A stretch of 64,000 nucleotides of DNA from Cyanidioschyzon merolae (GCA_000091205.1 AP006492.2); one strand, 5' to 3'. Positions 19,125 through 61,818 are shown, counted from the first letter of the stretch. Notes: a model not told the origin generated them from the sequence alone. Translations and numbers: made by a program.

Positions 19125-19650
19125 TGCACCCAGCGGTTCAACCCTTTCGAAGGAGTGTTTTCGATCGTGGTACGATAATGATCGTTCCACTGGGCGAATG
19201 ACTGAAGCGTCCAGCACATGGTGACACCAGGAGCACATGACGGCTTCTCCCCGCAAGTCCGTCTCATTCCGCGAAGGTCCTCACCTAAAGGATAAACAAG
19301 CACATTCATTTCCAAGCGATAAAAAATCCACGTGATGAACTCGGATGCACTCTTCAGAAGATCGACATGGAAAAGTGCCAGCGGAGCGCTTGGGTGATAG
19401 AAAAGTTCGGCAAGCTGACAGCGCAGCAAATGGCGCAGAGGGCACGGGATCCAGTACTCCCTGCACTGGAGCGTTCAAAGAGCGTCAAGAAACGCACAGA
19501 GCTCTTGAACCGGCACCTTCACGCCGCCATCCATATCAGAGGATATGCGGTGCGAGAGACGAGACACGAGCCGCTGACGCTGCCCGATTCTGTTCTGGGG
19601 CAGCGTCCCAGACTCGACGTGAGCCTGGATCAAAACCGAAACCGATAGGA
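19125..19650 (+). pseudogene. Fanzor/TnpB-like relic (C-terminal fragment) just upstream of the mtRNAP gene.
   Basis: ORF 19367..19648 reads MEKCQRSAWVIEKFGKLTAQQMAQRARDP...NRHLHAAIHIRGYAV, against the intact copy's [28 protein letters not shown]...[15 protein letters not shown]. About 70-75% nucleotide similarity to 100-640. Confidence 0.55.
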
Positions 19651-31099: not shown

Positions 31100-31609
31100 G
31101 TAGGCTTTCAGCGCAACAGAGTGCCGCCACGGTTGCGTGTCATCAAATGCGTTTTCACGGTTTTCAGCAGATGCGTACGAAGCGCATTCATTTGAAGGTA
31201 TCAAAAATCCACGGGGAAGACATGGACATACAAGTAGAGGATCCTGGATGGACGTCATAGCCGACTGCTCGAAAAAAACGAATAAAGCCGTCGTCTCGGT
31301 GACTGTCCAGCGACATAGAGCAGTGACGAAGACGAGAGAGAAGGAGAGTGGAGATAGCCAAGAAAAGGTGTTTTCGCCCGGCAGTACGTTGGCGAGACTC
31401 TAGTCGCACTAAGCGCACGAGTTCTAGGAATCCTTGGAACGGTTCGTGCAAGCAGAGGCAATAAACGCATCGAGTTCGTGAACCGAAACTCCAACGCCGC
31501 CATCCGTATCAGACGAAATGCGGTGCGAAAGACGAGATCCGAATTGCTGATGGCATCCATGTTTCTGGGGCAGCCTTTCAGGCTCGAAGTGTGCCTGGAT
31601 CTGAACTGA
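31100..31609 (+). pseudogene. Fanzor/TnpB-like C-terminal fragment (the older, diverged part of repeat-A copy 3), ending at the TGA at 31607-31609.
   Basis: 31349..31609 is near-identical to 346..602 (EFVNRNSNAAIRIRR frame). 31100..31349 is a diverged homologue of 100..346. The antisense ORF 31255..31653 mirrors 161..646. Confidence 0.55.
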
Positions 31610-41691: not shown

Positions 41692-43506
41692 AAAAATGTC
41701 CTCAGTTATATCGATTAATGAAACGAGATTATTGTTCAGCAACTGCGTGGGAATACCATGCCTCGCGTGTCTATCCACACCGCTTCGTCCGCTCTAGATT
41801 GCCGAACGTGCCATACCAGTGACCGGCCTCGGGCAGCAATCCAATGCCTTGTCTCTGGGTCACTGGTTCTGCTCATCGAGAGTGCTCAGCGCCTCAGGGC
41901 AGTGCTCAAACCCAGTCCCAGACGAACTGATCGAATGTTCGCTCGACCCACAGCCGCTGGACGCCCCGGGAGCACGGAACATTGCCGGATGCTGATCGAC
42001 AGGTTCATGTCTCGGTACAGAAAAGTGCTTGCGCGCCTGGTTGCTGGTGCAGTTCCAAGGTGGCAAGCCTCTCGCCTTCGATTGCCTCGCCATCTGGCGT
42101 TCGGCCAGCATACCGCACACGGTATCGTGCATCCGACGCTGGTCCCGGCTCGTGTGCTCTACCGGTTTCAGCATGCATATGTTCTAGTCAGGCGCGTACG
42201 TCGTCATGAGGGCGTCAGTGAACGACCTTCGAAATCGATGCCTGCACTCACTTGAAGCGCTCTTCGACGGGGCACTGGAGCAACCGATGTTTGCTGGAGG
42301 ATGTTCATCGCGGTGGGCTACCACTCAACGACGCGACTTGCCGGTCGTTCCCTTTCCACAACCGCTGGACTAGGTGCCGAGTGCAAGACTACCGGCCTCC
42401 GCACAGACGAAACTGCAGGCTATCCGAGCACAGCGCCAGACACATCTGCCGTCGATTGTCTGTACAGGTCAGTCGCACGCTCGTGTGCTCTCTGAATGAC
42501 GCGCATAAACGCATCACCGTCTGCACAGTACAATACGACGCTGAGAGCGTCGCGATGCGCCCTGATGCCGTCATTCCACTTTGTGGTATGTCGCCTGGCG
42601 TCCATGATGCCCGGGCCCCGATGATGCCGCGCTCTGGAAGAATCCTGTCGCGGTGCCGATGGTGTCCCGAGCAGCCGCTGTGCTGCCGCACGAAGGTTTG
42701 ATCGAGAACGTCGAGGCGGGTAAGGACAGCTGGCTGCCGTGCGTACGGAACGCGCTCGAACAGCCGCTCGACGAGATGCGCTCCAGCGAGAGAGACGAGG
42801 GAAGCGCGAGCAAGTCGGCACACACGAAGCTTGAGGCCATCAGCGAATCTTTTCGTTTGGCCGTTGGTAGGCGACTGAACGGCTGCGTCACCACAAGCAC
42901 CGGTACTGCCGCCATTCAAGCTTGTCTCTTGTGTATGAAGTGCAGCTCGCGTCTCTCTGAATGCCGATACAAAGCTGTACCGGTTATTCCGAGAACAGTC
43001 TCATCCAGTGAGACGAAACCCCGTCCCTGCTGGAACCAGTGTTTGTGTTTCATGGGGAAGCTTAGCGAGCGAAGCTTAACGGGCGAGAGCTGCATACGGA
43101 AACATACTTCTTAGTACGAGTTCGTGTCTCTTCATCAATGCTCGTCTCAATAGAGCGGAAACTTCATATCCTGTCGCTTCTTTGACAAAACTGGTCAGCA
43201 AAAGTATGCTATAGAATGCGTTGTCGAGTGAGTGCGCAGCCGTATAGACAGCGTTTGCGAGGATCAGGGTAGGGTGCACGGCATCCGTTGCACGGACGAC
43301 GAGGACAGAGGATTCATCCGCCTACTGAGCGTAGAGTGACCGACTTGGACCAGTAATGTCGTTATCTCGCCAGCTAGCAGCGACAGCACAGAGTCTTTCC
43401 AGGACCGCTTCTCAAACCGAATAACACGTCCCGTTTGCTGAGTACCTGAAAGTAAAATAGTCTCAGATAATGTACTTGAACGTGTGTTCCGGAATTCTCT
43501 GATCTG
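41692..43506. repeat. Left arm of a large inverted repeat (about 1.8 kb), pairing with 48137..49951.
   Basis: ORFs in the two arms are mirror images: 41758..42255(+) vs 49388..49885(-), 42252..42701(+) vs 48942..49391(-), 42653..43114(+) vs 48529..48990(-), and 43076..43279(-) vs 48364..48567(+). Paired coordinates always sum to 91643, so there are no indels. Only a handful of amino-acid differences separate the arms. Confidence 0.9.
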
Positions 43507-45144: not shown

Positions 45145-46821
45145 TCACGACGCTACGACAACTGGTACGGCCTCCGATGTGCAAGCGGTGTCAGTGCCTG
45201 CCCCAGTGCCTGCTCCAGTGCTTGCGTCCGCAACACGCCAACGCGCACGAATAACACTGTCCGCTGGGTATATCGTCGGCAAGTAGATGATCTCGTCGCT
45301 GTGCACGGTGCGCACCCGAGTCCAGTCCACAGTGGTCGCCAGCACCGCCAAATAGCACATCAAATGGTTGATCGCATAGTTCCGCCCGACACACATGTGC
45401 GGACCGCAGCCAAACGTCAGGAAATGCTTCCGGTACTTTTGCTCCTCCTGCCGCGGCGGCAGCATCCGCTCCGGATCGAAGCGTTCAGGTGACGGAAAGC
45501 CCTGCATGCACGCAGTCCAGAGACTCGGCACCACGAGCGCACCTCGCGGCACCTCGTAGCCGTTCGGCAGCTGCACCCGCTTGCTCGCAACCTGCGGAAC
45601 CATCACAGGCGGCGGCCGGAAGCGCAGCACCTCCAGAACGACCGCGCGCGTGTACACCATCTGCTCCAGCAGCTCGTAGGTGATCGGCTCGTCGTGCGGG
45701 CGCAGCCGCTGTTGCTCTTCGCGCACCCGCTGCAGCACGTCGGGTCGCTCGGCCACCAGCACAGTCGTCCATACCAGCGACGCTGTCGACGCATCCTGAG
45801 ACGCAAACAAAAAGTCCAGCATGGCGTCCGCCATCTCGTGGTCCGCGCTGTACTTGGGCGGCGCCCGGTTCTCGCGCTTCGCAGCTGCAACCTCCTCCAG
45901 CACGGACACCGTCCAAAAGTCCAGCAGGCACTGCGGCTCCGCCTCGGCGTCCTTCCGGAAACGCTCCTTCGACGCCCGTACACACGCAGTCAGGTCCCGT
46001 AGTACACGCTCCCGCGCCCGTATCGCACGCCACAGGCCCGTCCCAGGCAGCGCTAACGGGAACGAAAGAAAACCCTGCGTGATCAGCAGATAGTCCGCAC
46101 AGAAGCGCTCCCGATCGCGCAGGTACGGACCCACAAACACCGTCTGCGACGTCCGCAGATTCAGGTCGCGGATGCGCGGGCGCACCTCAAATGCTGCCGC
46201 GGTGCCGTCCGTGCCGCGCCCCGACAGCCACGCCGCCAGGTGCTCGCCAATCAGGCGCTCGTGGATGCTCACGTACATGCCTAGCGCCTTGGGCGTGAAC
46301 AGCCGCAGAAAAGACTGCCGCAGGAGCTTGTGCTCCTCGCCGCTCTTGAAGGCAATATTGTTCCGCCCGAGGATCCGCCAGCCGTTCGGGTGCAGTATCA
46401 TCTCAAACGCGTGCGGGCCGTTCTCGCTGAGCACGTACCGGCTGAGGTCCGTGTCCGTCACGAAAAGCACGAAGAAGCCCGCCAGCGCATTCCAGCTCAG
46501 GCCGCACGGGTTTAAGCGCCGCTGCCGCTCCCAGAACCCGTACGGCGACAGCACCATTTCCACGATGCTCCCGATGAGCGGAATCACAAACCGCGGGCCT
46601 GGGATTCGCCCGTAGCCCGCCCAGCGCCGCAGTCGCACCTGCTCTGCGATCGCGAGGCCGAGCACCAGCAGCGCAACGTACGCCAGCGCACGGCTGGCGG
46701 TACCCCAGCCGGCGATCCCCAGCGCAGCGTCCGCGCGGCGCAGGCAGTGCCGCGCCACCGATACCACCCACTCGGCTGCTGCCACAGGCGTCGAGCGCGT
46801 AAGCGAGGCCGTCTCAATCAT
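45145..46821 (-). CDS. Cytochrome P450, sterol C-22 desaturase-like (CYP710/CYP61 family).
   Basis: 558 aa. N-terminal membrane anchor, PERF-like PERFDPERM, and the haem-binding loop FLTFGCGPHMCVGRNYA. FLFASQDASTASLVWT closely resembles the CYP710/CYP61 I-helix region. There is a C-terminal (AGT)n-encoded Gly/Thr/Ala tail. Confidence 0.7.
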   Translation of the reverse strand: MIETASLTRSTPVAAAEWVVSVARHCLRRADAALGIAGWGTASRALAYVALLVLGLAIAEQVRLRRWAGYGRIPGPRFVIPLIGSIVEMVLSPYGFWERQRRLNPCGLSWNALAGFFVLFVTDTDLSRYVLSENGPHAFEMILHPNGWRILGRNNIAFKSGEEHKLLRQSFLRLFTPKALGMYVSIHERLIGEHLAAWLSGRGTDGTAAAFEVRPRIRDLNLRTSQTVFVGPYLRDRERFCADYLLITQGFLSFPLALPGTGLWRAIRARERVLRDLTACVRASKERFRKDAEAEPQCLLDFWTVSVLEEVAAAKRENRAPPKYSADHEMADAMLDFLFASQDASTASLVWTTVLVAERPDVLQRVREEQQRLRPHDEPITYELLEQMVYTRAVVLEVLRFRPPPVMVPQVASKRVQLPNGYEVPRGALVVPSLWTACMQGFPSPERFDPERMLPPRQEEQKYRKHFLTFGCGPHMCVGRNYAINHLMCYLAVLATTVDWTRVRTVHSDEIIYLPTIYPADSVIRARWRVADASTGAGTGAGTDTACTSEAVPVVVAS

Positions 46822-48136: not shown

Positions 48137-49951
48137 CAGATCAGAGAATTCCGGAACACACGTTCAAGTACATTATCTGAGACTATTTTACTTTCAGGTA
48201 CTCAGCAAACGGGACGTGTTATTCGGTTTGAGAAGCGGTCCTGGAAAGACTCTGTGCTGTCGCTGCTAGCTGGCGAGATAACGACATTACTGGTCCAAGT
48301 CGGTCACTCTACGCTCAGTAGGCGGATGAATCCTCTGTCCTCGTCGTCCGTGCAACGGATGCCGTGCACCCTACCCTGATCCTCGCAAACGCTGTCTATA
48401 CGGCTGCGCACTCACTCGACAACGCATTCTATAGCATACTTTTGCTGACCAGTTTTGTCAAAGAAGCGACAGGATATGAAGTTTCCGCTCTATTGAGACG
48501 AGCATTGATGAAGAGACACGAACTCGTACTAAGAAGTATGTTTCCGTATGCAGCTCTCGCCCGTTAAGCTTCGCTCGCTAAGCTTCCCCATGAAACACAA
48601 ACACCGGTTCCAGCAGGGACGGGGTTTCGTCTCACTGGATGAGACTGTTCTCGGAATAACCGGTACAGCTTTGTATCGGCATTCAGAGAGACGCGAGCTG
48701 CACTTCATACACAAGAGACAAGCTTGAATGGCGGCAGTACCGGTGCTTGTGGTGACGCAGCCGTTCAGTCGCCTACCAACGGCCAAACGAAAAGATTCGC
48801 TGATGGCCTCAAGCTTCGTGTGTGCCGACTTGCTCGCGCTTCCCTCGTCTCCCTCGCTGGGGCGCATCTCGTCGAGCGGCTGTTCGAGCGCGTTCCGTAC
48901 GCACGGCGGCCAGCTGTCCTTACCCGCCTCGACGTTCTCGATCAAACCTTCGTGCGGCAGCACAACGGCTGCTCGGGACACCATCGGCACCGCGACAGGA
49001 TTCTTCCAGAGCGCGGCATCATCGGGGCCCGGGCATCATGGACGCCAGGCGACATACCACAAAGTGGAATGACGGCATCAGGGCGCATCGCGACGCTCTC
49101 AGCGTCGTATTGTACTGTGCAGACGGTGATGCGTTTATGCGCGTTATTCAGAGAGCACACGAGCGTGCGACTGGCCTGTACAGACGATCGACGGCAGATG
49201 TGTCTGGCGCTGTGCTCGGATAGCCTGCAGTTTCGTCTGTGCGGAGGCCGGTAGTCTTGCACTCGGCACCTAGTCAAGCGGTTGTGGAAAGGGAATGACC
49301 GGCAAGTCGCGTCGTTGAGTGGTAGCCCACCGCGATGAACATCCTCCAGCAAACATCGGTTGCTCCAGTGCCCCGTCGAAGCGCGCCTCAAGTGAGTGCA
49401 GGCATCGATTTCGAAGGTCGTTCACTGACGCCCTCATGACGACGTACGCGCCTGACTAGAACATATGCATGCTGAAACCGGTAGAGCACACGAGCCGGGA
49501 CCAGCGTCGGATGCACGATACCGTGTGCGGTATGCTGGCCGAACGCCAGATGGCGAGGCAATCGAAGGCGAGAGGCTTGCCACCTTGGAACTGCACCAGC
49601 AACCAGGCGCGCAAGCACTTTTCTGTACCGAGACATGAACCTGTCGATCAGCATCCGGCAATGTTCCGTGCTCCCGGGGCGTCCAGCGGCTGTGGGTCGA
49701 GCGAACGTTCGATCAGTTCGTCTGGGACTGGGTTTGAGCACTGCCCTGAGGCGCTGAGCACTCTCGATGAGCAGAACCAGTGACCCAGAGACAAGGCATT
49801 GGATTGCTGCCCGAGGCCGGTCACTGGTATGGCACGTTCGGCAATCTAGAGCGGACGAAGCGGCGTGGATAGATACGCGCGGCATGGTATTCCCACGCAG
49901 TTGCTGAACAATAATCTCGTTTCATTAATCGATATATCTACGGATATCGCG
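48137..49951. repeat. Right arm of the large inverted repeat (pairs with 41692..43506).
   Basis: See the left arm. The inner boundary diverges right after ...ggaattctctgatctg (43506 / 48137). The outer boundary lies near tatatcgattaatgaaacg (41692 / 49951). Confidence 0.9.
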
Positions 49952-51586: not shown

Positions 51587-53761
51587 TCAAGCACGGAGGT
51601 CTGGTCGCTCTCGGCCAAGCTCCGAGACGATTCCACAATAGAGAAGAGCTGCGCGCCCAATATCTGCCACAAAACTCGAGGCAAGTTCCCCAACAGCTTG
51701 AACGTCTCCGTCATTGGGGGCAACGTACTTTTCTAGGTAAACGCGCAGGGTCGCATCCGCTGAACTTGTCCCGCTGAGCCGCAGAACGGCTCGCATCCTC
51801 CGATCAGATGAGAAAAACAACCGTACGCCCTGGTTTCGCGCCCAGGAGCCATCCACTGGATCCTGGTAATGAAATACATCCGCGGCATAGAGCTGTGGTC
51901 CATCGATACGCAAGCTGAGGATTTCGCCGCCTTCGACCGAGCGTTCTAGGTTGCGCATCCAGCGCTCGGCTGTGGTCCGTTCGATTCCGTGAAAATCCCA
52001 GCGCTCGTAATAGTTGCGTCCGTAGTGAGCCCAGTGTGCTCGAACAATATCCTCAACACTTGTGCTTTTCGATCCCGGAGCGACTTGGAGATTATGGTAC
52101 GCCAAAATTGACAGCCAAAAAAGAATAGCCCACAAACCATCTTTCTCTCTGATATGAGCCCCGCCCGCCCCGCAACTCTCCTCTCCGCATAGAGAGACCA
52201 GGCCCGCGTCGAGCAGATTGCAGAAATATTTCCACCCCGTGGGCGTTTCGTAGCACCTAATATTATGGCGTGAAGCAACGACGTCAACAGCAGAGCTCGT
52301 CGGCATCGAGCGAGCGACGCCTCGAATAAGGCCACCATCAAATCTGCAGTATGCGGCAAAATCCGGTCGAAGTGCGTAATCCAACATAATCGCCAGCGAG
52401 TCTGATGGTTGCACGACGAACTTACGCCCGAGAATAAGATATCGGTCACCATCGGCATCGGAAGCAGCGCCAAAGTCGGGTGAATCCTCATCGGAAAAGA
52501 ATTCGGCAACCAAGTCTGCCAAGTTCTCCAGATTAGGTTCCGGATGAACGCCACCAAAGTCGGGGAGATACTGACCCCGCCGGAACCAGGGATACTCCCA
52601 GTACCCGAGTTTTTCGCCAAAAATCATGAACGCAAACGGACCAGTCGATCCATACATCGCATCGTAAACCATGTTAAAGTTTGGGAGACGCAAGAGCGCT
52701 CTTAATCGTTCAAAATGAAATATACCTTCCATCAGCTCCACGTACGTTGCAGTGGCATCAACGAGGTGGATTTCAAAAGTCCTCCCGCCATCCGAGTGTG
52801 GGAGTCTGTCCGGATTCGGGGACTGGAGCGCATCGCGAGCGCCCTCCGGCAAGATCCGAAAACGGTGTACCGTTTGGATCCGTTTGAAATTGACACCGTC
52901 GAACCCGTCCCGGCCACAGAGCGCCTCCGGATCCGACGCCTCCACCTCTAAATATCTAGATATTGTCAAGGTTCTCTCGTAAATTAGGGACGTAAATGAG
53001 TCCGGCGCTGGACCACCGTTTTCCATATTGTACTTGACACCCCAGTCGCCATCAACACCGCCAGGGTTGTGGCTCGCCGTCAGGGCGATCCCGCCCAGGG
53101 CACCAGCAGCTCGAATCGCCGCACTGATAGCGGGCGTCGTAGCGATAGCGTCCGGTCCGAGCACGATCAGCCGCTGCAGGCTGTTGGCGGCAGCGATGCG
53201 GAGCAGTGTTCGAAGGGCAGCCTGGTTGCCCTCGCGGCCGTCGCCACCGACAACGAGTGTTGCCCGGTTGAGGCACGTGCGCCCGTATCGCTCGACCAGC
53301 ACATCGAAAAGGGATTGAAACCAGTTCTCGAAAAAGTTTGGTGTCTGTGTTACCTCACGTGTGCGCTTTCGTATGCCAGAGGTGCCCGTCTTCTGACCAG
53401 GTATCGGTGACGTTGGAACCTGGACAACGCACAGCGGTGTGCTTTCCTCGTACACGACGGTTTCTTGGTGGAACAGATCACTCCAGTCGATTGCAGAGCA
53501 TCGGATTTTGCTGCGTTCGAGTCTAGAGGTTTGATTCGGTTCCCGTTTGCCTGCAAACTTGCGGCGACGCCACGCGCTCTGGCACAAGTAAGAACTTGCC
53601 CTGGTTGGGTTCCAGTAGGTCCCGCGCGCCAGCGTTGCTCGTTTCGGCGTGTAGTTCACGGTAAACGCCAGGCACGGAAACCAGCCGCACTCACAACGAG
53701 GCGCCAATCTGCCGTAAGTTACGCAGTCCATCCCAGTGGATGCATCCTCGATTGAAACCAT
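51587..53761 (-). CDS. PGM: Phosphoglucomutase. The ORF has an about 100-codon N-terminal extension of doubtful coding status.
   Basis: GTSGIRK (phosphate-binding), active-site TASHNPGG, metal-binding DGDGDR, and GEESCG/sugar-binding motifs in the canonical order. The conserved core begins near residue 105 of the ORF (about 53440). The upstream residues (PRCECGWFPCLAF...) are Cys/Trp/Arg-rich and unlike a transit peptide. Confidence 0.85.
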   Translation of the reverse strand: MVSIEDASTGMDCVTYGRLAPRCECGWFPCLAFTVNYTPKRATLARGTYWNPTRASSYLCQSAWRRRKFAGKREPNQTSRLERSKIRCSAIDWSDLFHQETVVYEESTPLCVVQVPTSPIPGQKTGTSGIRKRTREVTQTPNFFENWFQSLFDVLVERYGRTCLNRATLVVGGDGREGNQAALRTLLRIAAANSLQRLIVLGPDAIATTPAISAAIRAAGALGGIALTASHNPGGVDGDWGVKYNMENGGPAPDSFTSLIYERTLTISRYLEVEASDPEALCGRDGFDGVNFKRIQTVHRFRILPEGARDALQSPNPDRLPHSDGGRTFEIHLVDATATYVELMEGIFHFERLRALLRLPNFNMVYDAMYGSTGPFAFMIFGEKLGYWEYPWFRRGQYLPDFGGVHPEPNLENLADLVAEFFSDEDSPDFGAASDADGDRYLILGRKFVVQPSDSLAIMLDYALRPDFAAYCRFDGGLIRGVARSMPTSSAVDVVASRHNIRCYETPTGWKYFCNLLDAGLVSLCGEESCGAGGAHIREKDGLWAILFWLSILAYHNLQVAPGSKSTSVEDIVRAHWAHYGRNYYERWDFHGIERTTAERWMRNLERSVEGGEILSLRIDGPQLYAADVFHYQDPVDGSWARNQGVRLFFSSDRRMRAVLRLSGTSSADATLRVYLEKYVAPNDGDVQAVGELASSFVADIGRAALLYCGIVSELGRERPDLRA

Positions 53762-53855: not shown

Positions 53856-54908
53856 TTACGACTTGTCGATCCGAACGCCGTTCGAAATTCGAACGACGCC
53901 AGCAGTACAGTAGTGGCGAGAAGCCCGACCTAGACTAGTCGTCATTAACCAATGTGCAGACGTCCTCGTCTTTTTCGACCGGCCCCCGCTACTGCTCCCT
54001 TTTTTCTCATATAGTTCCACTTTGAGAGATTGTCCAGCAAAGTTCGCGCTTGTCCAATCTGGTGGTCTCTCCTCCAGCACCGCACATCTCCTTATATTGA
54101 TGGCGGCGTTAGAGTCACGATTCACAAACTCCATCCGTTTCTTGCCATCACTGGTTGCACTTACTAATGCAAAGAGTCCACGAACTTTCGCCCTCCTTTC
54201 CATTTGCTCTTCTGTTAGCAGTCCGTACTTTGCTATATCCTCAGGGCTCCTCTGGCACTTTTCCATCTCGACTCTCTGAAGTGTACAACCCAGCTCGTGG
54301 TGTGTGTAGGACGTTCGGAACTCATCTACAGGTATCGTGACGAAACGCCTTGTGCACTCCTTGTACAACCTTGTCGTTGGAGCTGGTGTACACCCTTTTT
54401 GAATCTTCCATCGCCCTGCTGCGTACGCTACTACGAGCCTTTGAGTCTTGTCCTCTTTGAGGGCACTCAACTGATTGAAAAAGTTGGCGAACGCCTGCTG
54501 CTTACCACAATACAGATTCATTCGCAAACGAGCCCATCGGGGCTTTGTATACTCCTCCCAGAGTGCATCCCAATGGGCAACGCGAACTTCCATAAATTTC
54601 CGAAAAGCTTCAAAGTCCGCACCTCGGCTCGTCATCTCGCCCAAAGCTTCCAGGTGATCCTTCATTCCTGAATTCCAAGTCTCGATTTTCTTCCTCGCAT
54701 TCATTATACCGGATTCTCGATAGTATCTTGCTCTCGAGAACCTCATCAGACGCATGTCTTTCTGACGTAAGTTACCATCAGCGCCATCTTCTGCACGCTT
54801 CGGTGCTGCGATGGTTGTGATATTCGTATTCCCAGGGTCCGCGCCACCGACAAAGTCGTTATCTTGCACTTTCTCGGTCACAGGACCCGCCCTCCTTCTT
54901 TTCTTCAT
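53856..54908 (-). CDS. Fanzor (eukaryotic TnpB-like RNA-guided-endonuclease family) protein, C-terminal RuvC-containing half, with an intact 350-aa ORF.
   Basis: RuvC-I-like [14 protein letters not shown] (aa 21-34). The Fanzor/TnpB TS motif is [16 protein letters not shown] (aa 193-208, nt 54285-54332), preceded by [15 protein letters not shown]. The RuvC-III motif is RDSNAAINI (aa 264-272, nt 54093-54119). No canonical RuvC-II Glu is found in the usual xVVED position, which may fit the relocated catalytic Glu described for the Fanzor1 type, as recalled from the literature rather than seen in the sequence. GC is about 50% against about 60% for host genes. Confidence 0.7.
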
Positions 54909-56124
54909 GCTTCACCGCGTCAATGGCAAGGTAGTCATCCTGCACCACCGGCGTCGCAGGATCCGCCTCCTTCTCATCTTCATCCTTCGCCGCGCCGACG
55001 ATAAGGTCGTTATCCTCCACCTCCTGCATCACAGAATCCTCCTCTTTGTTTTCTGCATCCCTCGTGACGGGCGCGGCCGAGGGCGGATCTGGACGATCTT
55101 TCTTCAACCGCCGATAGAGTACACACGTGGCTACTCCATCGGTTTCGATCAACCCAGCAAATACCTTTTGTTTGCTGACTTTGAGACGTTTGAAGTCGAA
55201 GATACTCTTCCAGTACGTCTCCCGGTTTTCACCGATGAAGTCCTCCCTGCTCACATCGAACTCCGGACAGATCTCCCTCATGATGCCGTAAAGGACGCCT
55301 GAATCGATAGTCACGAAATGTGACTTGATATTGCACATTGGAACGCCGTTGAAGCGCTTACCCATTAGGAAAGCCTTCCGTCTCTCCCACTCTTGATTTG
55401 TCTCTTCACTCAGCTTCATCTCCGCTTCGCGTTCGAGCTCTCGGTCCAGAAACACGAAATATCACAGGATGAGGCGGTAGTATCTTTCCTTATCTTTTTT
55501 CAACTCTGATCAATTTTCTGCCAAATTCGCCAGCCCCAGGACTGCACGATACTCTTGGATAGCCGCACGGATTACAGAAGCTTCATTTGCGCTCCTGCGT
55601 GACGCCTTCTTATCGACAAACTCGATCTCAACTTCATACTTGCGATCTTTCATGATGCCATTGATAATCGCCCATTTTCCGTTGCGAGCGATGCCCGGGT
55701 AGAGTGTACCCACCGCGCGTATCATAAAACGTTCGAGGTTCACTGTCAAATGGTTCTTCAGACTCGTGGTGTACTTTTTCGCTCCGTATGCCTAAATATC
55801 CGAGGCACCCCTGTATCGATTACCTTCGAAGCGGAATTCCACCAAGTTTTCGTGGAGGGCGTGCACTAGCACATTTTCCTTCAGCGCTTCCGCTGTGCCA
55901 AGCATCAGGTGACGAATAAACGTCTTGTCGAAAAACTCGTCAGGAATCTCGACTGTTTCCGTGTGCGTCACGTCGCGATACATCTCCCTCACCAAATGCA
56001 TCAGTACTGACGACGCCTTGACAATACTCTTGGAGTACGAGTCGACATGGTTTCTGATAGCGTCTCGCAACTTTTCGTTGCACGGATCCTTGATATGTTT
56101 AAGAAGGAAGGTTTTCACCACCAT
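54859..56124 (-). pseudogene. Putative N-terminal half of the same Fanzor gene. It is one reading frame broken by in-frame stops (TAG 55792-55794, TGA 55510-55512, TGA 55462-55464) and joined to the RuvC half by a frameshift within a 3x about 75-bp imperfect tandem repeat.
   Basis: ORFs 55792..56124, 55510..55749 and 54859..55455 all share minus-strand frame 0. The C-terminal ORF 53856..54908 is in frame 2 and overlaps by 50 nt. The repeats encode [11 protein letters not shown] / [11 protein letters not shown] / [12 protein letters not shown] basic NLS-like ORF (KKNKKQCRVQKKRERRR) lies at 56099..56281. No convincing intron signals flank the stops, so recent pseudogenisation is more likely than splicing. 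Confidence 0.45.
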
Positions 56125-57362
56125 CTCGTCGTAAAGTCGTCTTTGTTGCAGCCTTCAACGTAGGGCCTCCCCTTTCGGTTCTTCTTCTCTCCCTTTTCTT
56201 CTGGACTCGGCACTGTTTTTTGTTTTTTTTTCTGGCAGCCGGCGACCCTGGGCCTCCAGGATCGTGGACTTGCTTTTTCATAGCTTTCCTTTTTTAGTTT
56301 TTTTTTGAAAAACAACGCTCTGTGAACGCTTCTGTTATATACTGCGAAAAAAAACTTGAACACACTTGTTTGAGGTTTGAAAGAAAAATGAACTAAAAAA
56401 CTGTACTCTGCTAAGACCTTAACGGAAATCCAATTTTTCCAGTAGAACAACACGCTACTGATCAGGATCGCGTTTCCCTTCAACGGCGGCATTCGCATCG
56501 TGTCAGTAGACTGGCCGATCTCCGAGGTATCTCGGCGTCGATCTGGTCGTGGTGAGCAAAACGCCGGGTACAAAAACACCGATAACAAAACAAACTAGTC
56601 GCAAACTATTTATTAAAGAACAACTATCTTAAAGACCCACACACCACGCCCGCCTTAGAGGTCTAGTTTTTCCGGAGAAGCTCTGAAAGTGGGTTAACGC
56701 GGGGTGCTTGGGCGACGGCGAAGGAAGCCCACGCCAGGGACCTTGACCGCAACGAACGGAGGGGCGGCGGCAGTAGCACCAGAAAATGTTGACGAAAATC
56801 CTGATTAGTCATCCGCCCCTCCCGAATCAACGCTGCAGGTTCGGGCGCAAATCTTGGATCGATCCTCGGACTCGGGCTCCGTTTTACCTCCTACCTTGGC
56901 TACCTACCTCAACTTTGGGAACAATTTCGGCGGATACTTTGGAAGACGGCTGGCAGTATGTTCACTGTCGAAGCTGGAATAAGCGGCTTGCCCGCCTATG
57001 TGTTTGGGGAGCGGATACGTAGCCGCTGAAAGGGTGGTTTGCAGACTGTTCCCAATTGTTGAGGGGAGGTTAAAGCGTCGGGCAAGATAAAGGTCGCATT
57101 CGAATCGACCTTGACTAGCGTACATCTGATTCTACGCTAGCGCTGCGGCAGACGCTCAATGAACGACTGGAATGCAGGAGGCGCTGGTGGCATGTGCGAT
57201 CACACACGCCATGGAGGGTGCATCTCAATCGACAACGTATCTCTCGAGTACCGCAGCGTTAATCCTATTCCCTTATGCGCTACGACTCGATAGGTTTCGC
57301 ATCATGGAATATTTGTGGGATCGCCTCGGTATTGAACTACGAGATATCGAATTACCAGTACA

Positions 57363-60300
57363 GTAATGAAGAACTGATACAAGTCGAGGACTGTACAAAA
57401 GGCAAAAGAGACCCAACCAGACACGGAGAAGGAGACACAGAAACCTCATGATCCACCTAGATGCAAAATAACCAGAGAATGTAGCTCAGGAAAGAACCCG
57501 ATGAAGAAGAAAACCAACAAGAGAAAAACAGAAGAATAGGAAGAAGAACTCCCGAACGAGTCCACAGGCGGGGGCTCCAGCGAACCCATCACAAGTCGTC
57601 CCCGAAAGAGCACCCCAGCAGGAACTCAAGAAAGCCGTCGCCAAACCGAGTCACCTACTCACAGCGCTGAAGATCCGAAAAGCCGTGCATACAAATCTTT
57701 AGACCAATTGGCACGCGAGTTTGTAGATGGGAATCAGAAGTTGCCGGAGAGCTGGGACTGCTTGCACCAGAACGCAACAGTTGCAAACCTCAGTGCCTGA
57801 AACGACGTACCAATACCCGGATTGACGAGCGCCACCGACTCTATCAGATCGTCAACCACACCGCCATACGCGCCAACGCTGGAGACAAGGAAGCGAAGGC
57901 AGTCCTAACGGCGCTACAGGCACAACATGAAGAAGCTATCAAAAGAAAGAAGAAACTTTCCAGAGAAGACAAACGAGAGGATCGAAACCGCAAAATCGCC
58001 TCCCTAGCGAAATCTATGCTAGAGAGCACCAACGAAGATGAGACCTGGCGCTACATTCGATCGAGACTGGACCCACCAAAAAAGTGCTTGGGGCTCACAC
58101 CAATCGTTTATGAGGAAGTGCTGAGGACGGAGCGTGCCTCAGTGAATGAGGCCTGGACGGACCACGGCACAGAGCTGCATGAAGACGCAACTGGGAACTG
58201 CCAAGACAGAATCTATTGGCACCAGTATGCCGCAGAACTACCGCGCCTCGAACCGGTACCGGAATGGAACGACCCAATCTTCTGGCCTGAATCTGTTCGG
58301 ACCGTGCTATGCTCAAGCAACCGCAAAACACCTGGCATCGACGGTATCGCGGCGGAGTGGATGAAACTGGTGATCCCAAAAGACGGGACAAGAGGGACAC
58401 TATCGATACCAGATGAACCTGACACAAGCTTAGGCAAACGCCTTGTGGAGCTCATCCAACGCATGTTCGAAGAGGCGTACATCCCGGATTTATGGAGGAC
58501 TGCCGAGGTCGTACCGATCCTCAAAAAGGACTCCGACGTACACAAACACAGACATGAACAACTACCGGACTATTCGCCTCATCCCGTCAATCATGAAGCT
58601 ACTTTGCGCCATTCCCACGAACCGGACTCAGAGAGGCCTCGTGGAACGCAAGTTCTTCGCCCCAGAACAGGCTGGATTCCGGAGCCACGAGGAGTGCATG
58701 AGCCATGCCCTGACCCTAACTGAAGTGGTGCAACGTCGCTCCATTAGCGGCCAACAACCAGCTTACGTATGCTTCACCGACTTTCAAAAGGCCTTTGACA
58801 CGGTCCCGCACGAGGCTCCATTTCTCAAGATGGAACGAGCCCAAGTCTCCGGAAAGTGCTTAGCGTTCTTCCGTGCGCTCTATGCAGACTCATGGATGCG
58901 CATCCGACTGGGCGACCGCTCAAGAACCCCTTCCAGAAGAATCCGCCGTGGACTGCGGCAGGGCGAGCGCGCATCCCCGCTCCTTTTCAACATCTTCATC
59001 AACGATCTGCTGAACAACTGCAGACAATACGGGCTTGAGGTGCCGTGGATAGACTGTGGAGATACCCGATGAGGAGCTCTCACATAGGAACCGCCTCGCA
59101 GGCCGTCTAGTTGCGGACGATGTCGTGCTGTTGGCACCCGCCCCGGAAACGCTTGCGGGTAGCATGGAACAAGTCAGCGCCCGGGCCGATCGCTGGGAGA
59201 TGAGCATAGGAGCATCGAAGTGCGGCGTCATGGTCATCCATGGAGACTCGCAGAGCATTCGCAATCGCTCGTGGCGGTTGCAGAATCAGGAAATTCCGAT
59301 CGTGGAAAAATATCGCTACCCGGGGGTCTGTCTAACGCCGACGCTCGACGAAGAGGCACACGTCGACGAGATGATCGCCAAGATGCATAGACGTACAGCG
59401 ATCGCACGTCCATTCCCATCCGACCCCTCTATCTGCATAGCAATTCGTACCAGGGCACGAAGGATGTGTATCATCCAGCCTGCGACCTGGGGTGCTGAGT
59501 GGTGCGGCATGAACCACACAAATGCCTCACGTCTGCAGATAGCCGCCAACATGGCAATGCGACTCGTTGTTGCTGTTGGATGCTCAATGTAGAGCAGAGC
59601 AACCACCGCGCTGGCACTCGGACTTGAACTCCAAATAGCCTCGACAGAGGCGACAGCAGCAGGTTGCCGGGCACGCATATGGGGCAAAGGGCCAACTATG
59701 AACACCTGGTTCGATCGGATATCCATGCAGACCCCAACGCACCGCAAGAACACTTGGATGAAATCGACGCAGATTTGGCTGAAGCGCCTCTTAGGGGACA
59801 ACACGCTCCCCAATCGTTCCCCAGGAATGTAGAAGACTTCAGACGCCTCAAGCGAACGGTCCAAACAACAATTTGGGAACGTAGACACGGAACCAGTCGC
59901 GCCAGTAACGCCGGCTTAACTCTATACCGGAACTACAACCTAGCATACACATGCAAGTACTGGTGGGAGGCGCTGGAATTCCCGGGACTTGCTCGAGGTA
60001 CCCAGTGGCTCGCCAAAATCCGCGTTGATGGCTTCTGGCTAGCGGCACCGGCTCTAAACCATATAGGGACACTGGAATCGCACTGGGAGTCACACTGTCC
60101 CTGCTATCGAGACGAAATCCCCGAGACGCTGACATATTTAGGCTTACAGTGCCCGCGCTGGAAGCAGGAGCGCAGCGAGCTCCTTGAAGGACAGCAGCAG
60201 CTGGGCATCACCATGATAGCCGAGGGCCGGACATTCACTTTGAGTGCAGCACTGGCAACTGATGGTCCGCTAACAGATCCTCAGTGCTCATTAGTGGCCA

Positions 60301-60830
60301 ACAAACTCACATGCTACGTTCTAGGCATGAGGTCCAGCGTATCGGATGCGCACACGGGCCCAGTGCGCTTTCTGCGCCCACCTTTTGTGGTGGGTGTCAA
60401 GCACAAATCCGCATTTCCAACCGACGACAACGCATTCCATGCATGATCACGAAGGAGAGAGGCGGCTCCCACGATATATCCTAACAGTCAAGTTTCTCCA
60501 GCGTGTCGTGCAGCGAAGGCAAGCCTGCATCCGCAGACTGTCCGAGCACAAACTGACGACGAGACTCGATTCTACGTCGGGTGAAGCACACCTCGAGCCG
60601 ACGCCCTTTGTGGTATAGAAAAGCCGTTCTGTCTCCATGATGCATCTGTACCAAAGGTAAAGACGCTATTGCGGATAATTAGGACAGGTTCTGGGCACAC
60701 GATAGGACGTATGAGATGACCAGAATATCTGAGACGAAGTATAGGTAATGGAACTTGGGAGTAGCCTGTTTGATGGATACTTCACGGCGCACTGAAAAAA
60801 AGAGAAAAAAGTAAGAAAAGAAAAATGCGC
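57363..60830 (+). mobile_element. Degenerate, 5'-truncated non-LTR (LINE) retrotransposon.
   Basis: Reverse-transcriptase motifs are spread over frameshifted ORFs. ORF 58016..58723 carries motif 0 (PGIDGIAAEWMKL...WRTAEVVPILKK). ORF 58443..59072 carries motif 1 NYRTIRLIPSIMKLL, motif 2 FQKAFDTVPH and motifs 3-4 RGLRQGERASPLLFNIFIND. ORF 59056..59592 carries motif 5 LVADDVVLLA. ORF 59664..60446 carries the C-terminal Cys-His knuckle HCPCYRDEIPETLTYLGLQCPRWKQER. An A-rich tail lies at about 60795-60828. No endonuclease domain is seen upstream. Confidence 0.8.
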
Positions 60831-60924
60831 GTGATCGGAGAACGCTGGCCTAAGTAAACGTTTTGTCAACGAAAAAACAAATACCGCCCCAGCAGCGCCT
60901 GGGCGGACAAGCGGCCGCGATCCG

Positions 60925-61143
60925 GCGCAATCGCCGGAAAGCTCTGCGCCGCTGCAATCGCCGGAAAGCTCTGCGCCGCTGCAATCGCCGGAAAGCTCTG
61001 CGCCGCTGCAATCGCCGGAACGCTCTGCGCCGCTGCAATCGCCGGAACGCTCTGCGCCGCTGCAATCGCCGGAAAGCTCTGCGCCGCTGCAATCGCCGGA
61101 AAGCTCTGCGCCGCTGCAATCGCCGGAAAGCTCTGCGCCGCTG
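60925..61143. repeat. Minisatellite, 27-bp unit (caatcgccggaaagctctgcgccgctg) x about 8.
   Basis: Direct tandem copies with an A/C variant (ggaaag/ggaacg). Located about 80 bp upstream of the ClpS-like ORF. Confidence 0.9.
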
Positions 61144-61221
61144 CAGGCGCGCCGGCCAGAGCGCTCTCCATAGATCCGTAACTCTTATTTTGCGTGTGCA
61201 GAGGCTAGAGCGGTACGCTGG

Positions 61222-61818
61222 ATGGAACTGTTTCGAAAAATGAAAGCTTGCAACGGCCTACTCGGTTTTTGTTCTTGGTATACGGATATCGGCAAACTGG
61301 ACTCGACTTTGCGGCAACGACGAGAACGTTTGCGTTGTCGAGTGCGGCGTGCGGTGGTAGCTGGAGCAGCGGCTTCTTCGCTCGACGGGTCGCGCACGCA
61401 TGCACGCGGGACACCAGGACACCGACTGGTGCGAGGGCAGATGCCCGCGCCTAAAATTGGGCGGCCGAAAACCGAAGTGAAGCGAGAGACCTTCCGTATG
61501 CCAGAACCGGTAAAGGAGGTCGAGGCAGAAGCGGGCGCTGTTCGAGGGCGCCCGAAAACGAAGCGTGTGACGGACACGGAGTTCGTGCCGATGTGGAAAG
61601 TGATTCTACTAGGCGACAAAGAATATGAGGAAAAGCACGTCATAGAATCGCTAGTGAAGACCATCCCAAAAATGGACAAGGAGGAGGCGCGACGAATTTT
61701 CAAAGAGGCCCAAGCTGTTGGGGAATCTGTGGTTACCGTTGTCGCTCAGGAGCACGCCGAGTTCTACGCGACGATGCTGCGGCGATGCTCGCTTTACGTG
61801 CGAATCGAACCGGAGTGA
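61222..61818 (+). CDS. ClpS-like Clp-protease adaptor domain protein with an N-terminal extension containing two RGRP/GRPK AT-hook-like motifs.
   Basis: The C-terminal about 90 aa read PMWKVILLGDKEYEEKHVIESLVKTIPKMDKEEARRIFKEAQAVGESVVTVVAQEHAEFYATMLRRCSL, matching the ClpS core (..MYKVILLNDDYTPMEFV...A..LM..VH..G.AVCGVFT.EVAETKV..V). The N-terminus carries KIGRPKTEVKRE and RGRPKTKRV. Confidence 0.6.
   Translation: MELFRKMKACNGLLGFCSWYTDIGKLDSTLRQRRERLRCRVRRAVVAGAAASSLDGSRTHARGTPGHRLVRGQMPAPKIGRPKTEVKRETFRMPEPVKEVEAEAGAVRGRPKTKRVTDTEFVPMWKVILLGDKEYEEKHVIESLVKTIPKMDKEEARRIFKEAQAVGESVVTVVAQEHAEFYATMLRRCSLYVRIEPE

Follow-up and report, generated by a model that had tools for sequence, protein, structure and literature searches.

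Segment 53856-60830 of a 64,000-nucleotide (nt) stretch of Cyanidioschyzon merolae DNA (GCA_000091205.1, AP006492.2; this whole stretch is hereafter called the window) lies between two host genes, and a sequence-only reading had described it as a compositionally anomalous island holding a Fanzor gene and a frameshifted long interspersed nuclear element (LINE). We are highly confident that this island consists of two ancient, inactivated transposable element (TE) copies, a Fanzor1 repeat unit on the minus strand and a full-length LINE on the plus strand, which stand head to head between the divergent phosphoglucomutase (PGM) and ClpS genes. The best overall explanation, and probably the right one, is that these two dead copies are one instance of a junction between the two families that recurs at other loci. 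As a compositional island the finding is ordinary, the two repeat families having been catalogued previously in a completely sequenced genome; only the recurrent junction and the LINE's lack of an endonuclease go beyond the literature searched. Loci for comparison (L numbers) were gathered by Fanzor homology from metagenomes with close relatives of C. merolae. The parts of the island are as follows.

53867-56528, minus strand: Fanzor1 repeat unit of CMe-1A type, a 5′-truncated ‘core’ of ~2.66 kb and a pseudogene, delimited by homology to paralogues.
54033-54893, minus strand: RuvC-containing C-terminal half of the Fanzor open reading frame (ORF), with DPGNTN (RuvC-I), DEFRTS (RuvC-II) and a RuvC-III motif.
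53867-54040, minus strand: 3′ end of the Fanzor unit, non-coding and conserved, which may be an omega-RNA scaffold or the right end of the element.
54878-55064, minus strand: 75-nt tandem repeat (2.5 units) inside the Fanzor ORF, from Tandem Repeats Finder (TRF) and off-diagonal BLAST matches.
56529-56584, no strand: 56-nt spacer separating the Fanzor 5′ breakpoint from the start of the LINE, found in the window, L005 and L009/L010.
56585-60877, plus strand: non-LTR retrotransposon, full length (4.29 kb), frameshifted and without an APE domain (RVT_1, E 7.8e-17).
60098-60175, plus strand, frame 2: putative C-terminal Cys-rich knuckle of the LINE ORF (CPCYRDEIPETLTYLGLQCPRW), a motif recognized by eye.

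The Fanzor gene was confirmed as a member of the Fanzor1 family by comparison of sequence profiles and of a predicted fold. Single-sequence searches were blank, with zero Pfam or PDB matches in the minus-strand frames of ~56290-53856, and the link to Fanzor1 needed a profile of 91 sequences together with structure prediction. A word-indexed protein search returned 35 matches to the Fanzor ORF, 33 of them at 52-83% identity, and a full protein scan returned 3368 cluster representatives at E<=0.001, mostly of 600-700 amino acids (aa). With hmmsearch, the profile of 91 homologues matched the solved Fanzor1 proteins PpFz (Parasitella, E 8e-23), SpuFz (Spizellomyces, 2e-17) and GtFz (Guillardia, 9e-13). 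An AlphaFold2 (AF2) model of the homologue P0032 (pLDDT 90.6) superposed on SpuFz over its full length (Foldseek E 9e-18, TM 0.66/0.72); its TM scores to SpuFz were 0.66-0.75 overall, and Cas12f and TnpB ranked far below. RuvC residues D398, E569 and R635-D636 are near-invariant in the alignment of the 91 homologues, and the window copy retains DPGNTN, DEFRTS and the RuvC-III motif. The C4 zinc finger between RuvC-II ([TS][TS]) and RuvC-III (RD) is absent: the window copy has two Cys only, and the same segment of P0034 and P0035 has zero. This Fanzor1 clade as a whole, as represented by the alignment of 91 homologues (window 54150-54300), is without the Cys4 finger, and the AF2 model is confident there except at residues 604-608.

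Set against P0001, an intact paralogue at 74% identity, the window gene carries four in-frame stop codons and two frameshifts (~56170 and ~54890), which mark this copy as a pseudogene. Its C-terminal half nevertheless remains a stop-free match, at 83% identity, to P0001 residues 466-752 (54033-54893). The 75-nt repeat of the ORF translates into an acidic stretch (VQDNDLVVGA.KHEE...), and paralogues differ in its number of units, with 2.5 in the window and 4 in P0001.

By BLAST against 74 related loci, the window unit is ~78-85% identical to other copies and belongs to a high-copy repeat with consistent limits. Homology to more than 60 paralogous copies places these limits at 53867-53909 and 56501-56530, the 3′ limit of the unit being uncertain by ~7 nt; the core 5′ end reads ATCGCGCTCGG. 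Longer copies continue 120-850 nt past the 5′ limit of the window copy into separately repeated, TE-N2_CMe-like DNA, and the window copy is therefore a short ‘core’ form. Three 3′-terminal Fanzor remnants lie elsewhere in the window on the plus strand (396-572, 19337-19600 and 31415-31570); in each only the last 50-90 residues are matched, and they coincide with local GC minima.

In passages of Bao & Jurka (2013; PMC3627910), CMe-1A of C. merolae is described as a repeat of ~150 copies, ~3 kb long and ~80% identical to its consensus, without terminal inverted repeats (TIRs) and with an undetermined target-site duplication (TSD); its 5′ 635 bp are common with the repeat TE-N2_CMe, and a family of this type was counted there as Fanzor1, the absence of a C4 finger in the copies studied here notwithstanding. 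According to passages of Nozaki et al. (2007; PMC1955436), the C. merolae genome has an interspersed repeat of 3.2 kb in 253 copies and only 26 non-LTR (‘class I’) elements, the latter amounting to ~0.6% of 16.5 Mb. On the strength of these published descriptions, rather than of a Repbase consensus, we assign the window Fanzor to the CMe-1A-type repeat, which matches the 253-copy repeat. As described, CMe-1A shares with the window family the organism, high copy number, ~80% identity, ~3 kb length, a single Fanzor1 ORF, the lack of TIRs and of a detectable TSD, and a 5′ part common with another repeat; the window copy departs from it in being a short core without the ~650-850-nt 5′ part and in having a dead gene.

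The LINE was likewise borne out as frameshifted, with RVT_1 matches spread over four frames: reverse transcriptase (RT) fragments occur in four reading frames at 57.7-60.4 kb, and tblastn with APE+RT relatives covers 57737-60236. Its 5′ end was set by L090, an independent copy whose alignment begins at 56585 behind an unrelated flank, and by L024; its 3′ end was set by ~13 distinct copies, which end in ...GTAAACGTTTTGTC[A/C]ATGAAAAAAA before running into differing, unrelated flanks. The window LINE, which ends at 60877 in a short A run, is thus full length. Copies truncated at the 5′ end are present among the loci, and one truncated copy (L065) bears an exact 12-nt TSD, so that the family does insert by the usual route. 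At the window LINE itself the TSD search gave only an ambiguous candidate, AAAACAAA, and the repeat search found no long direct repeats (LTRs).

This LINE family has lost its endonuclease. Relatives of ~1290 aa with APE and RT domains (e.g. P0188 and a Galdieria yellowstonensis protein) align only from their residue ~385, and no APE match was obtained at E<=0.01 in any frame of the window or of loci L001-L074. Only ~400 nt separate the start region of the LINE ORF from the RT linker: the ORF starts ...RYDS[LI][VG]FASWNI.G and continues through ~120 aa of Lys/Glu-rich sequence straight into the linker. The APE domain is deleted in the four copies examined (window, P0190, P0191 and P0194), and since they have the deletion in common, the deleted form itself must have multiplied. 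In the window, 57172-57737 retains only the N-terminal FASWNI.G motif, followed by Lys/Glu-rich low-complexity sequence.

The adjacency of the two elements is not peculiar to the window. The Fanzor core 5′ end (ATCGCGCTCGGTGAGCGC, window ~56528) is joined to the same LINE family at about ten other distinct loci, in two orientations. At five distinct loci (L015, L017/18, L021, L024 and L032) the junction is tail to head, the LINE 3′ tail being followed directly by the core start, and the LINE part there consists of 286 nt, of 862 nt, or of the full 5′ end with an internal deletion. Head-to-head junctions, the orientation of the window, come in four variants.

Window/L005/L009/L010: core end, 56-nt spacer, LINE 5′ terminus.
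L048: no 56-nt spacer, with the 20-nt Fanzor terminus ATCACGCTCGGTGAGCGCA in its place.
L038/49: 56462 joined to 56724.
L001/4: 56501, then 50 nt, then LINE position 59611.

The flanks at the Fanzor 3′ end differ among the head-to-head loci, revealing that the loci are paralogous. The window's exact junction, including its 56-nt spacer, is also found in L009/L010 with a different 3′ flank, so that the fused pair has probably been copied as a unit at least once. The earlier suggestion of a preferred landing zone was not upheld in the sense of one specific to this locus, as the junction recurs at loci with other flanks. On its outer sides the pair is bounded by the two elements' own 3′ termini, both in the window and in L001. 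The 56-nt spacer holds a partial inverted copy of the adjoining Fanzor terminus (CCGAGATA/CCTCGG) and resembles fold-back filler DNA at a repaired end.

Given only 26 LINEs in 16.5 Mb, as stated in the passages found of PMC1955436, chance abutment at about ten of the ~45-60 distinct Fanzor 5′ ends would be very unlikely, and we are confident that the Fanzor/LINE adjacency is non-random. The opposing view would be that the two are chance neighbours, unrelated insertions in the same divergent intergenic region of a gene-dense genome with few tolerated sites. Both elements are indeed intergenic between divergently transcribed genes, unfused LINE fragments occur within a few kb of Fanzor copies at L027, L032, L059 and L072, which suggests general TE clustering, and the full-length LINE L090 has no Fanzor beside it. 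We nonetheless hold chance neighbourhood to be very improbable: a nucleotide-precise junction recurs with other flanks, with the same Fanzor 5′ breakpoint and in some cases with the same LINE 5′ terminus, and the published genome description, as far as found, counts only 26 non-LTR elements in all.

Several observations weigh against reading the junction as a specific and repeated association. Because homology to Fanzor was the basis on which the loci were chosen, the number of independent events and the enrichment can be given only roughly. Other Fanzor copies bear a TE-N2_CMe-like repeat (120-850 nt) at the same 5′ position, so the junction is not LINE-specific, and the only two loci recovered with the LINE as starting point (L089 and L090) are without an adjoining Fanzor. 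The LINE, for its part, is not site-specific, with about eight other distinct 3′ ends in unrelated DNA. Finally, a single ancestral fusion followed by deletions could account for all four head-to-head variants; a neighbour-joining tree of 56 Fanzor copies is star-like, giving no decision between one fusion and several and leaving undecided whether the LINE-associated copies are monophyletic. The LINE-Fanzor junction goes unmentioned in the passages found of PMC3627910 and PMC1955436.

One further locus also combines the two families. There, as represented by L059, L066 and L071 (locus position ~10345 in L059/L071 and ~1055 in L066), sequence of the Fanzor 3′ region gives way to the LINE tail AATGAAAAAGA at ACGTTTTGTC, a 10-mer that the LINE also contains, and a GC-rich, microsatellite-like flank follows; the arrangement looks like a recombinant or template-switch product.

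The age of the island follows from related strains. In L005, the orthologous locus of one such strain, PGM, the Fanzor unit and the 5′ part of the LINE align without a break at 95.8% identity; its Fanzor gene differs from that of the window in 40 of 2463 columns, and the three stop codons tested are all present in it. L069 and L070 contain the LINE 3′ end, a 27-nt repeat and ClpS at 97-98% identity. The island shared by L005, L069 and L070 therefore predates the split of these strains, an outcome that the sequence-only reading had itself named as counting against it and that here refutes a recent origin. ClpS-side contigs were also sought for an empty PGM-ClpS site; the eight listed of 11 begin 2-753 nt upstream of the ClpS start, and none spans the island. 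The flanking features are given here.

51587-53761, minus strand: host phosphoglucomutase ORF, left flank, outside the island (Pfam PGM_PMM_I/II/III and PGM1_C, E 1e-8 to 4e-30).
60927-61145, no strand: 27-nt tandem repeat outside both elements (TRF and repeat search; 8.1 copies, 98% match, GC ~0.67).
61222-61818, plus strand: host ClpS-like ORF, right flank (Pfam ClpS, E 4.5e-8; 100% identity to C. merolae 10D BAM80376.1/XP_005534983.1).

Pfam thus agreed with the earlier naming of both flanking genes; the PGM protein had no exact match among recorded sequences. The 27-nt tandem repeat lies between the LINE 3′ end and ClpS, directly upstream of the latter; L069 and L070, the orthologous contigs, have kept it.

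The drop in GC that had drawn attention to the segment is real. GC is 51.9% (0.519) in 53856-60830 and 56.7% (0.567) in the remainder of the window, which has 56.2% as a whole, and only 1.4% of 7-kb windows in a window-wide scan are lower. PGM and ClpS are higher, with 55.7% (0.557) and 56.1% (0.561) in their ORFs. The dip is modest and unevenly spread: the Fanzor unit has 49.3% (0.493), the Lys-rich N-terminal region of the LINE 49.8% (0.498) and the LINE 3′ untranslated region (UTR) 48.0% (0.480), while the RT-coding part of the LINE has a host-like 55.8% (0.558). Several further 1-kb bins of the window are just as low (e.g. 50-51 kb, 0.507; 18-19 kb, 0.501). The two A-rich tracts singled out by the sequence-only reading are also real and are parts of the elements. 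That at 56160-56420 is A/T-rich and comprises the Lys/Arg-rich N-terminal coding sequence and 5′ leader region of the Fanzor gene; that at 60790-60830 is conserved and lies inside the LINE 3′ UTR, not at the LINE tail, the LINE ending ~45 nt beyond it at 60877. By homology the segment runs from ~53867-53874 to 60877, near the 53856 and 60830 first proposed.

Across 26 paralogous Fanzor cores GC is 0.493 ± 0.007, compared with 0.545 for the remainder of their loci, and the dip is thus a property of the Fanzor family. The low GC of the segment is the intrinsic composition of the two families, chiefly of the Fanzor unit at 49%. Family-wide composition together with stop codons shared by a related strain means that low GC is no sign of recent transfer.

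These results bear on the idea, part of the earlier description, of a nest of horizontally mobile DNA or of a Fanzor associated with a composite transposon. Two mobile elements do lie between PGM and ClpS, and the two families are recurrently fused. A recently acquired foreign island is a different matter and, like a classical composite DNA transposon, we find it scarcely credible. The copy is degenerate, with the insertion and its stop codons shared by the related strain L005; its composition is that of all its paralogues, to which it is ~80-88% identical; and a scan of viral contigs found only distant Fanzor relatives in giant viruses, at 22-29% identity. Lower GC than the flanks and the very existence of those viral relatives would speak for foreign origin, and Fanzor1 genes do occur inside several DNA transposon superfamilies (Mariner, Helitron, Sola, MuDR and IS4-like) according to passages of PMC3627910. 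The search for terminal repeats that the composite idea called for, however, detected neither inverted nor direct terminal repeats flanking 53.8-60.9 kb, short chance matches apart, and no TSD around the island; no transposase was seen in the window, where the only other ORF system is an RT, making the Fanzor's partner a retroelement. Each element's own termini are, moreover, seen separately elsewhere. An apparent flank similarity of 17-23 nt (ACAAAT...CCCAG) was rejected, its score of 15 being set against a null mean of 14.5 for random window pairs.

How the Fanzor family moves is suggested by its ends. The 3′ terminus is kept in nearly all of 64 distinct copies, about 20 of which are truncated at scattered 5′ points, and conservation of the 3′ non-coding region extends over 49 distinct copies. 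When copies are folded one by one, this region is predicted to form a long-range stem (AGTAGTGG/CCACTACT) as well as a hairpin at its terminus (~53870-53905); the hairpin is G-U rich, and four or more different stem sequences preserve it, with a median z of -2.25 and, in the window copy, -18.2 kcal/mol at z = -3.9. RNAalifold on the whole 3′ alignment gave almost zero consensus structure, a sub-alignment gave 88% paired cells with covariation not above that of shuffles, and an Rfam scan gave zero family matches for the region; a brute-force helix scan was too noisy for use. The 5-6 bases past GGCGTT at the Fanzor 3′ end are G/T-rich, and 10-22 nt there are common to paralogues.

From a constant 3′ end, variable 5′ ends and the lack of TIRs and TSDs, we infer that the Fanzor family would spread by 3′-anchored copying. 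The pattern fits an RNA-mediated, a rolling-circle-like or a break-repair homing process. Three results were negative: no TSD surrounds the composite or the window Fanzor unit, none was detected for 33 other Fanzor copies (mean score 12.7, compared with 12.8 for a null of mismatched pairs), and poly(A) is absent at the Fanzor 3′ end. Without TSDs around the composite, the unit or the 33 copies, insertion of the Fanzor sequence by target-primed reverse transcription (TPRT) is unsupported, and the lack of TSDs and of poly(A) argues against plain retroposition.

LINE-driven retroposition would take the 2.66-kb core to be a retrocopy of a Fanzor transcript, with tail-to-head junctions arising by template switch and head-to-head junctions by twin priming. 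Much of the geometry would suit it: Fanzor copies are 3′-anchored with scattered 5′ truncations, a sharp core 5′ end is common to fusions with the LINE 3′ tail and with the LINE 5′ end, the LINE parts of tail-to-head fusions are 5′-truncated to differing lengths, the outer limits in the window and L001 are both elements' own 3′ termini, L059/66/71 switch from the Fanzor 3′ region to the LINE tail at a shared 10-mer, and the two families are similarly diverged (80-88%). The Fanzor 3′ end, however, has neither poly(A) nor a LINE-like tail, the 33 Fanzor copies have no TSD where a LINE copy has a clean one of 12 nt, many copies run 120-850 nt upstream of the core into another repeat, and the LINE family is without an endonuclease. 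On balance we think retroposition distinctly unlikely.

Copying at the DNA level, either one-ended and rolling-circle in the manner of ISCR/Helitron elements or by RNA-guided break-repair homing, would start at the Fanzor 3′ hairpin and run a variable distance upstream into the donor, the LINE being a co-copied donor flank. It is consistent with the constant 3′ end and its conserved terminal hairpin, with variable 5′ extents and several classes of upstream partner that are themselves repeats, with the lack of TIRs and TSDs (also noted in passages of PMC3627910), with the recurrence of the window-type fusion and 56-nt spacer in L009/L010, a second locus whose 3′ flank differs, and with the 10-22 nt that paralogues share past the conserved terminus. 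It is doubtful all the same, if somewhat less so than retroposition: neither the unit nor the window showed an HUH/Rep protein or any other transposase, the copied tract in the window and L001 would need to stop exactly at the LINE 3′ terminus, and the G-U-rich hairpin fits an RNA better than a DNA signal. We also know of no Fanzor for which a homing mechanism has been shown, which counts against the break-repair form.

To return to the explanation that we prefer, two dead copies representing a recurrent junction, the joining step can be sketched only tentatively. The endonuclease-less LINE would have become attached to the Fanzor 5′ end in events mediated by DNA ends or by RT: LINE cDNA could have been inserted or captured where a DNA end lay free at the Fanzor copy's 5′ boundary, or the RT could have switched templates. 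On at least one occasion the fused pair would afterwards have been copied as a whole to another locus (L009/L010). Insertion or capture of cDNA at a DNA end, or template switching, would be expected to leave LINE termini fused to a single precise point at the Fanzor 5′ end, as is observed. This route to the junction is possible, and we would put it ahead of the two pathways above, yet below an even footing. A step further, and unlikely as it stands, the endonuclease-less LINE and the Fanzor1 repeat might be mechanistically coupled. In one version the LINE would enter at DNA ends arising from Fanzor copying or cutting, its cDNA being captured at the Fanzor 5′ junction in either orientation; in the other, the LINE RT would copy Fanzor transcripts, with template switching or twin priming.

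Were such a coupling true, it would tie an RNA-guided nuclease element functionally to a retrotransposon, and it would offer a first handle on the movement of the unclassified CMe-1A. Apart from this, the side result may matter in itself: a constant, structured Fanzor 3′ end and variable 5′ ends, with a LINE fused again and again at one precise 5′ position. C. merolae, a small alga that has hardly any introns, is poor in TEs, is genetically tractable and holds ~250 Fanzor repeats and ~26 LINEs, is suited to testing how Fanzor1 ‘solo’ elements move, whether by DNA-end capture, RT-mediated copying or RNA-guided homing, and what part their nuclease plays.

Another trace of Fanzor1 in the window lies apart from the island. 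An inverted repeat of 1.81 kb (41696-43506 and 48137-49947), with arms 98.9% identical, flanks ~4.6 kb that contain a P450-like ORF (45148-46821, minus strand), the GC of which is the highest of the window (65%, GC3 80%). Each arm includes the degenerate C-terminal half of another, more distant Fanzor1, at 42-44% aa identity to P0032.

Among known systems, the solved Fanzor1 nucleases SpuFz1 (8GKH, 9CEU), PpFz1 (9CF0) and GtFz1 (9CER) resemble the window family in fold over the whole length (TM 0.55-0.75, Foldseek E 1e-16 to 9e-18), in profile (E down to 8e-23) and in the RuvC D/E/D residues. They differ in that sequence identity is only 12-16%, the window family has no Cys4 finger between RuvC-II and RuvC-III, the omega RNA is here a candidate only, and the window copy is a pseudogene. 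The LINE shares its RT, putative Cys-rich knuckle, short A-rich 3′ end, 5′-truncated copies and, in one copy, a 12-nt TSD with APE-type non-LTR elements, represented by the 26 class I elements of C. merolae and the ~1290-aa relatives; unlike those relatives, the four copies examined have ~120 aa of Lys/Glu-rich sequence in place of APE.

For the junction itself the comparisons are analogies. Endonuclease-independent L1 insertion, capture of cDNA at double-strand breaks, L1 twin priming and U6/L1 chimeric retrocopies are all established. Such L1-type processes yield fusions to a pre-existing DNA end or to the cDNA of another RNA, in either orientation, with variable truncation and often no TSD, much as the Fanzor 5′ junctions appear; the likeness is one of pattern only, any break at the Fanzor 5′ end, and any part of a Fanzor in making it, being hypothetical here. 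Tx1L/Tx1D of Xenopus is a site-specific LINE inside a DNA transposon, and ISCR and Helitron elements are one-ended. The LINE studied here is unlike Tx1L in not being site-specific, and the Fanzor unit is unlike ISCR/Helitron in that no Rep or transposase gene was seen; by analogy, the locus would nonetheless recall the former in having one element tied to a fixed position of another, and the latter in combining a constant, hairpin-bearing 3′ end with variable upstream content.

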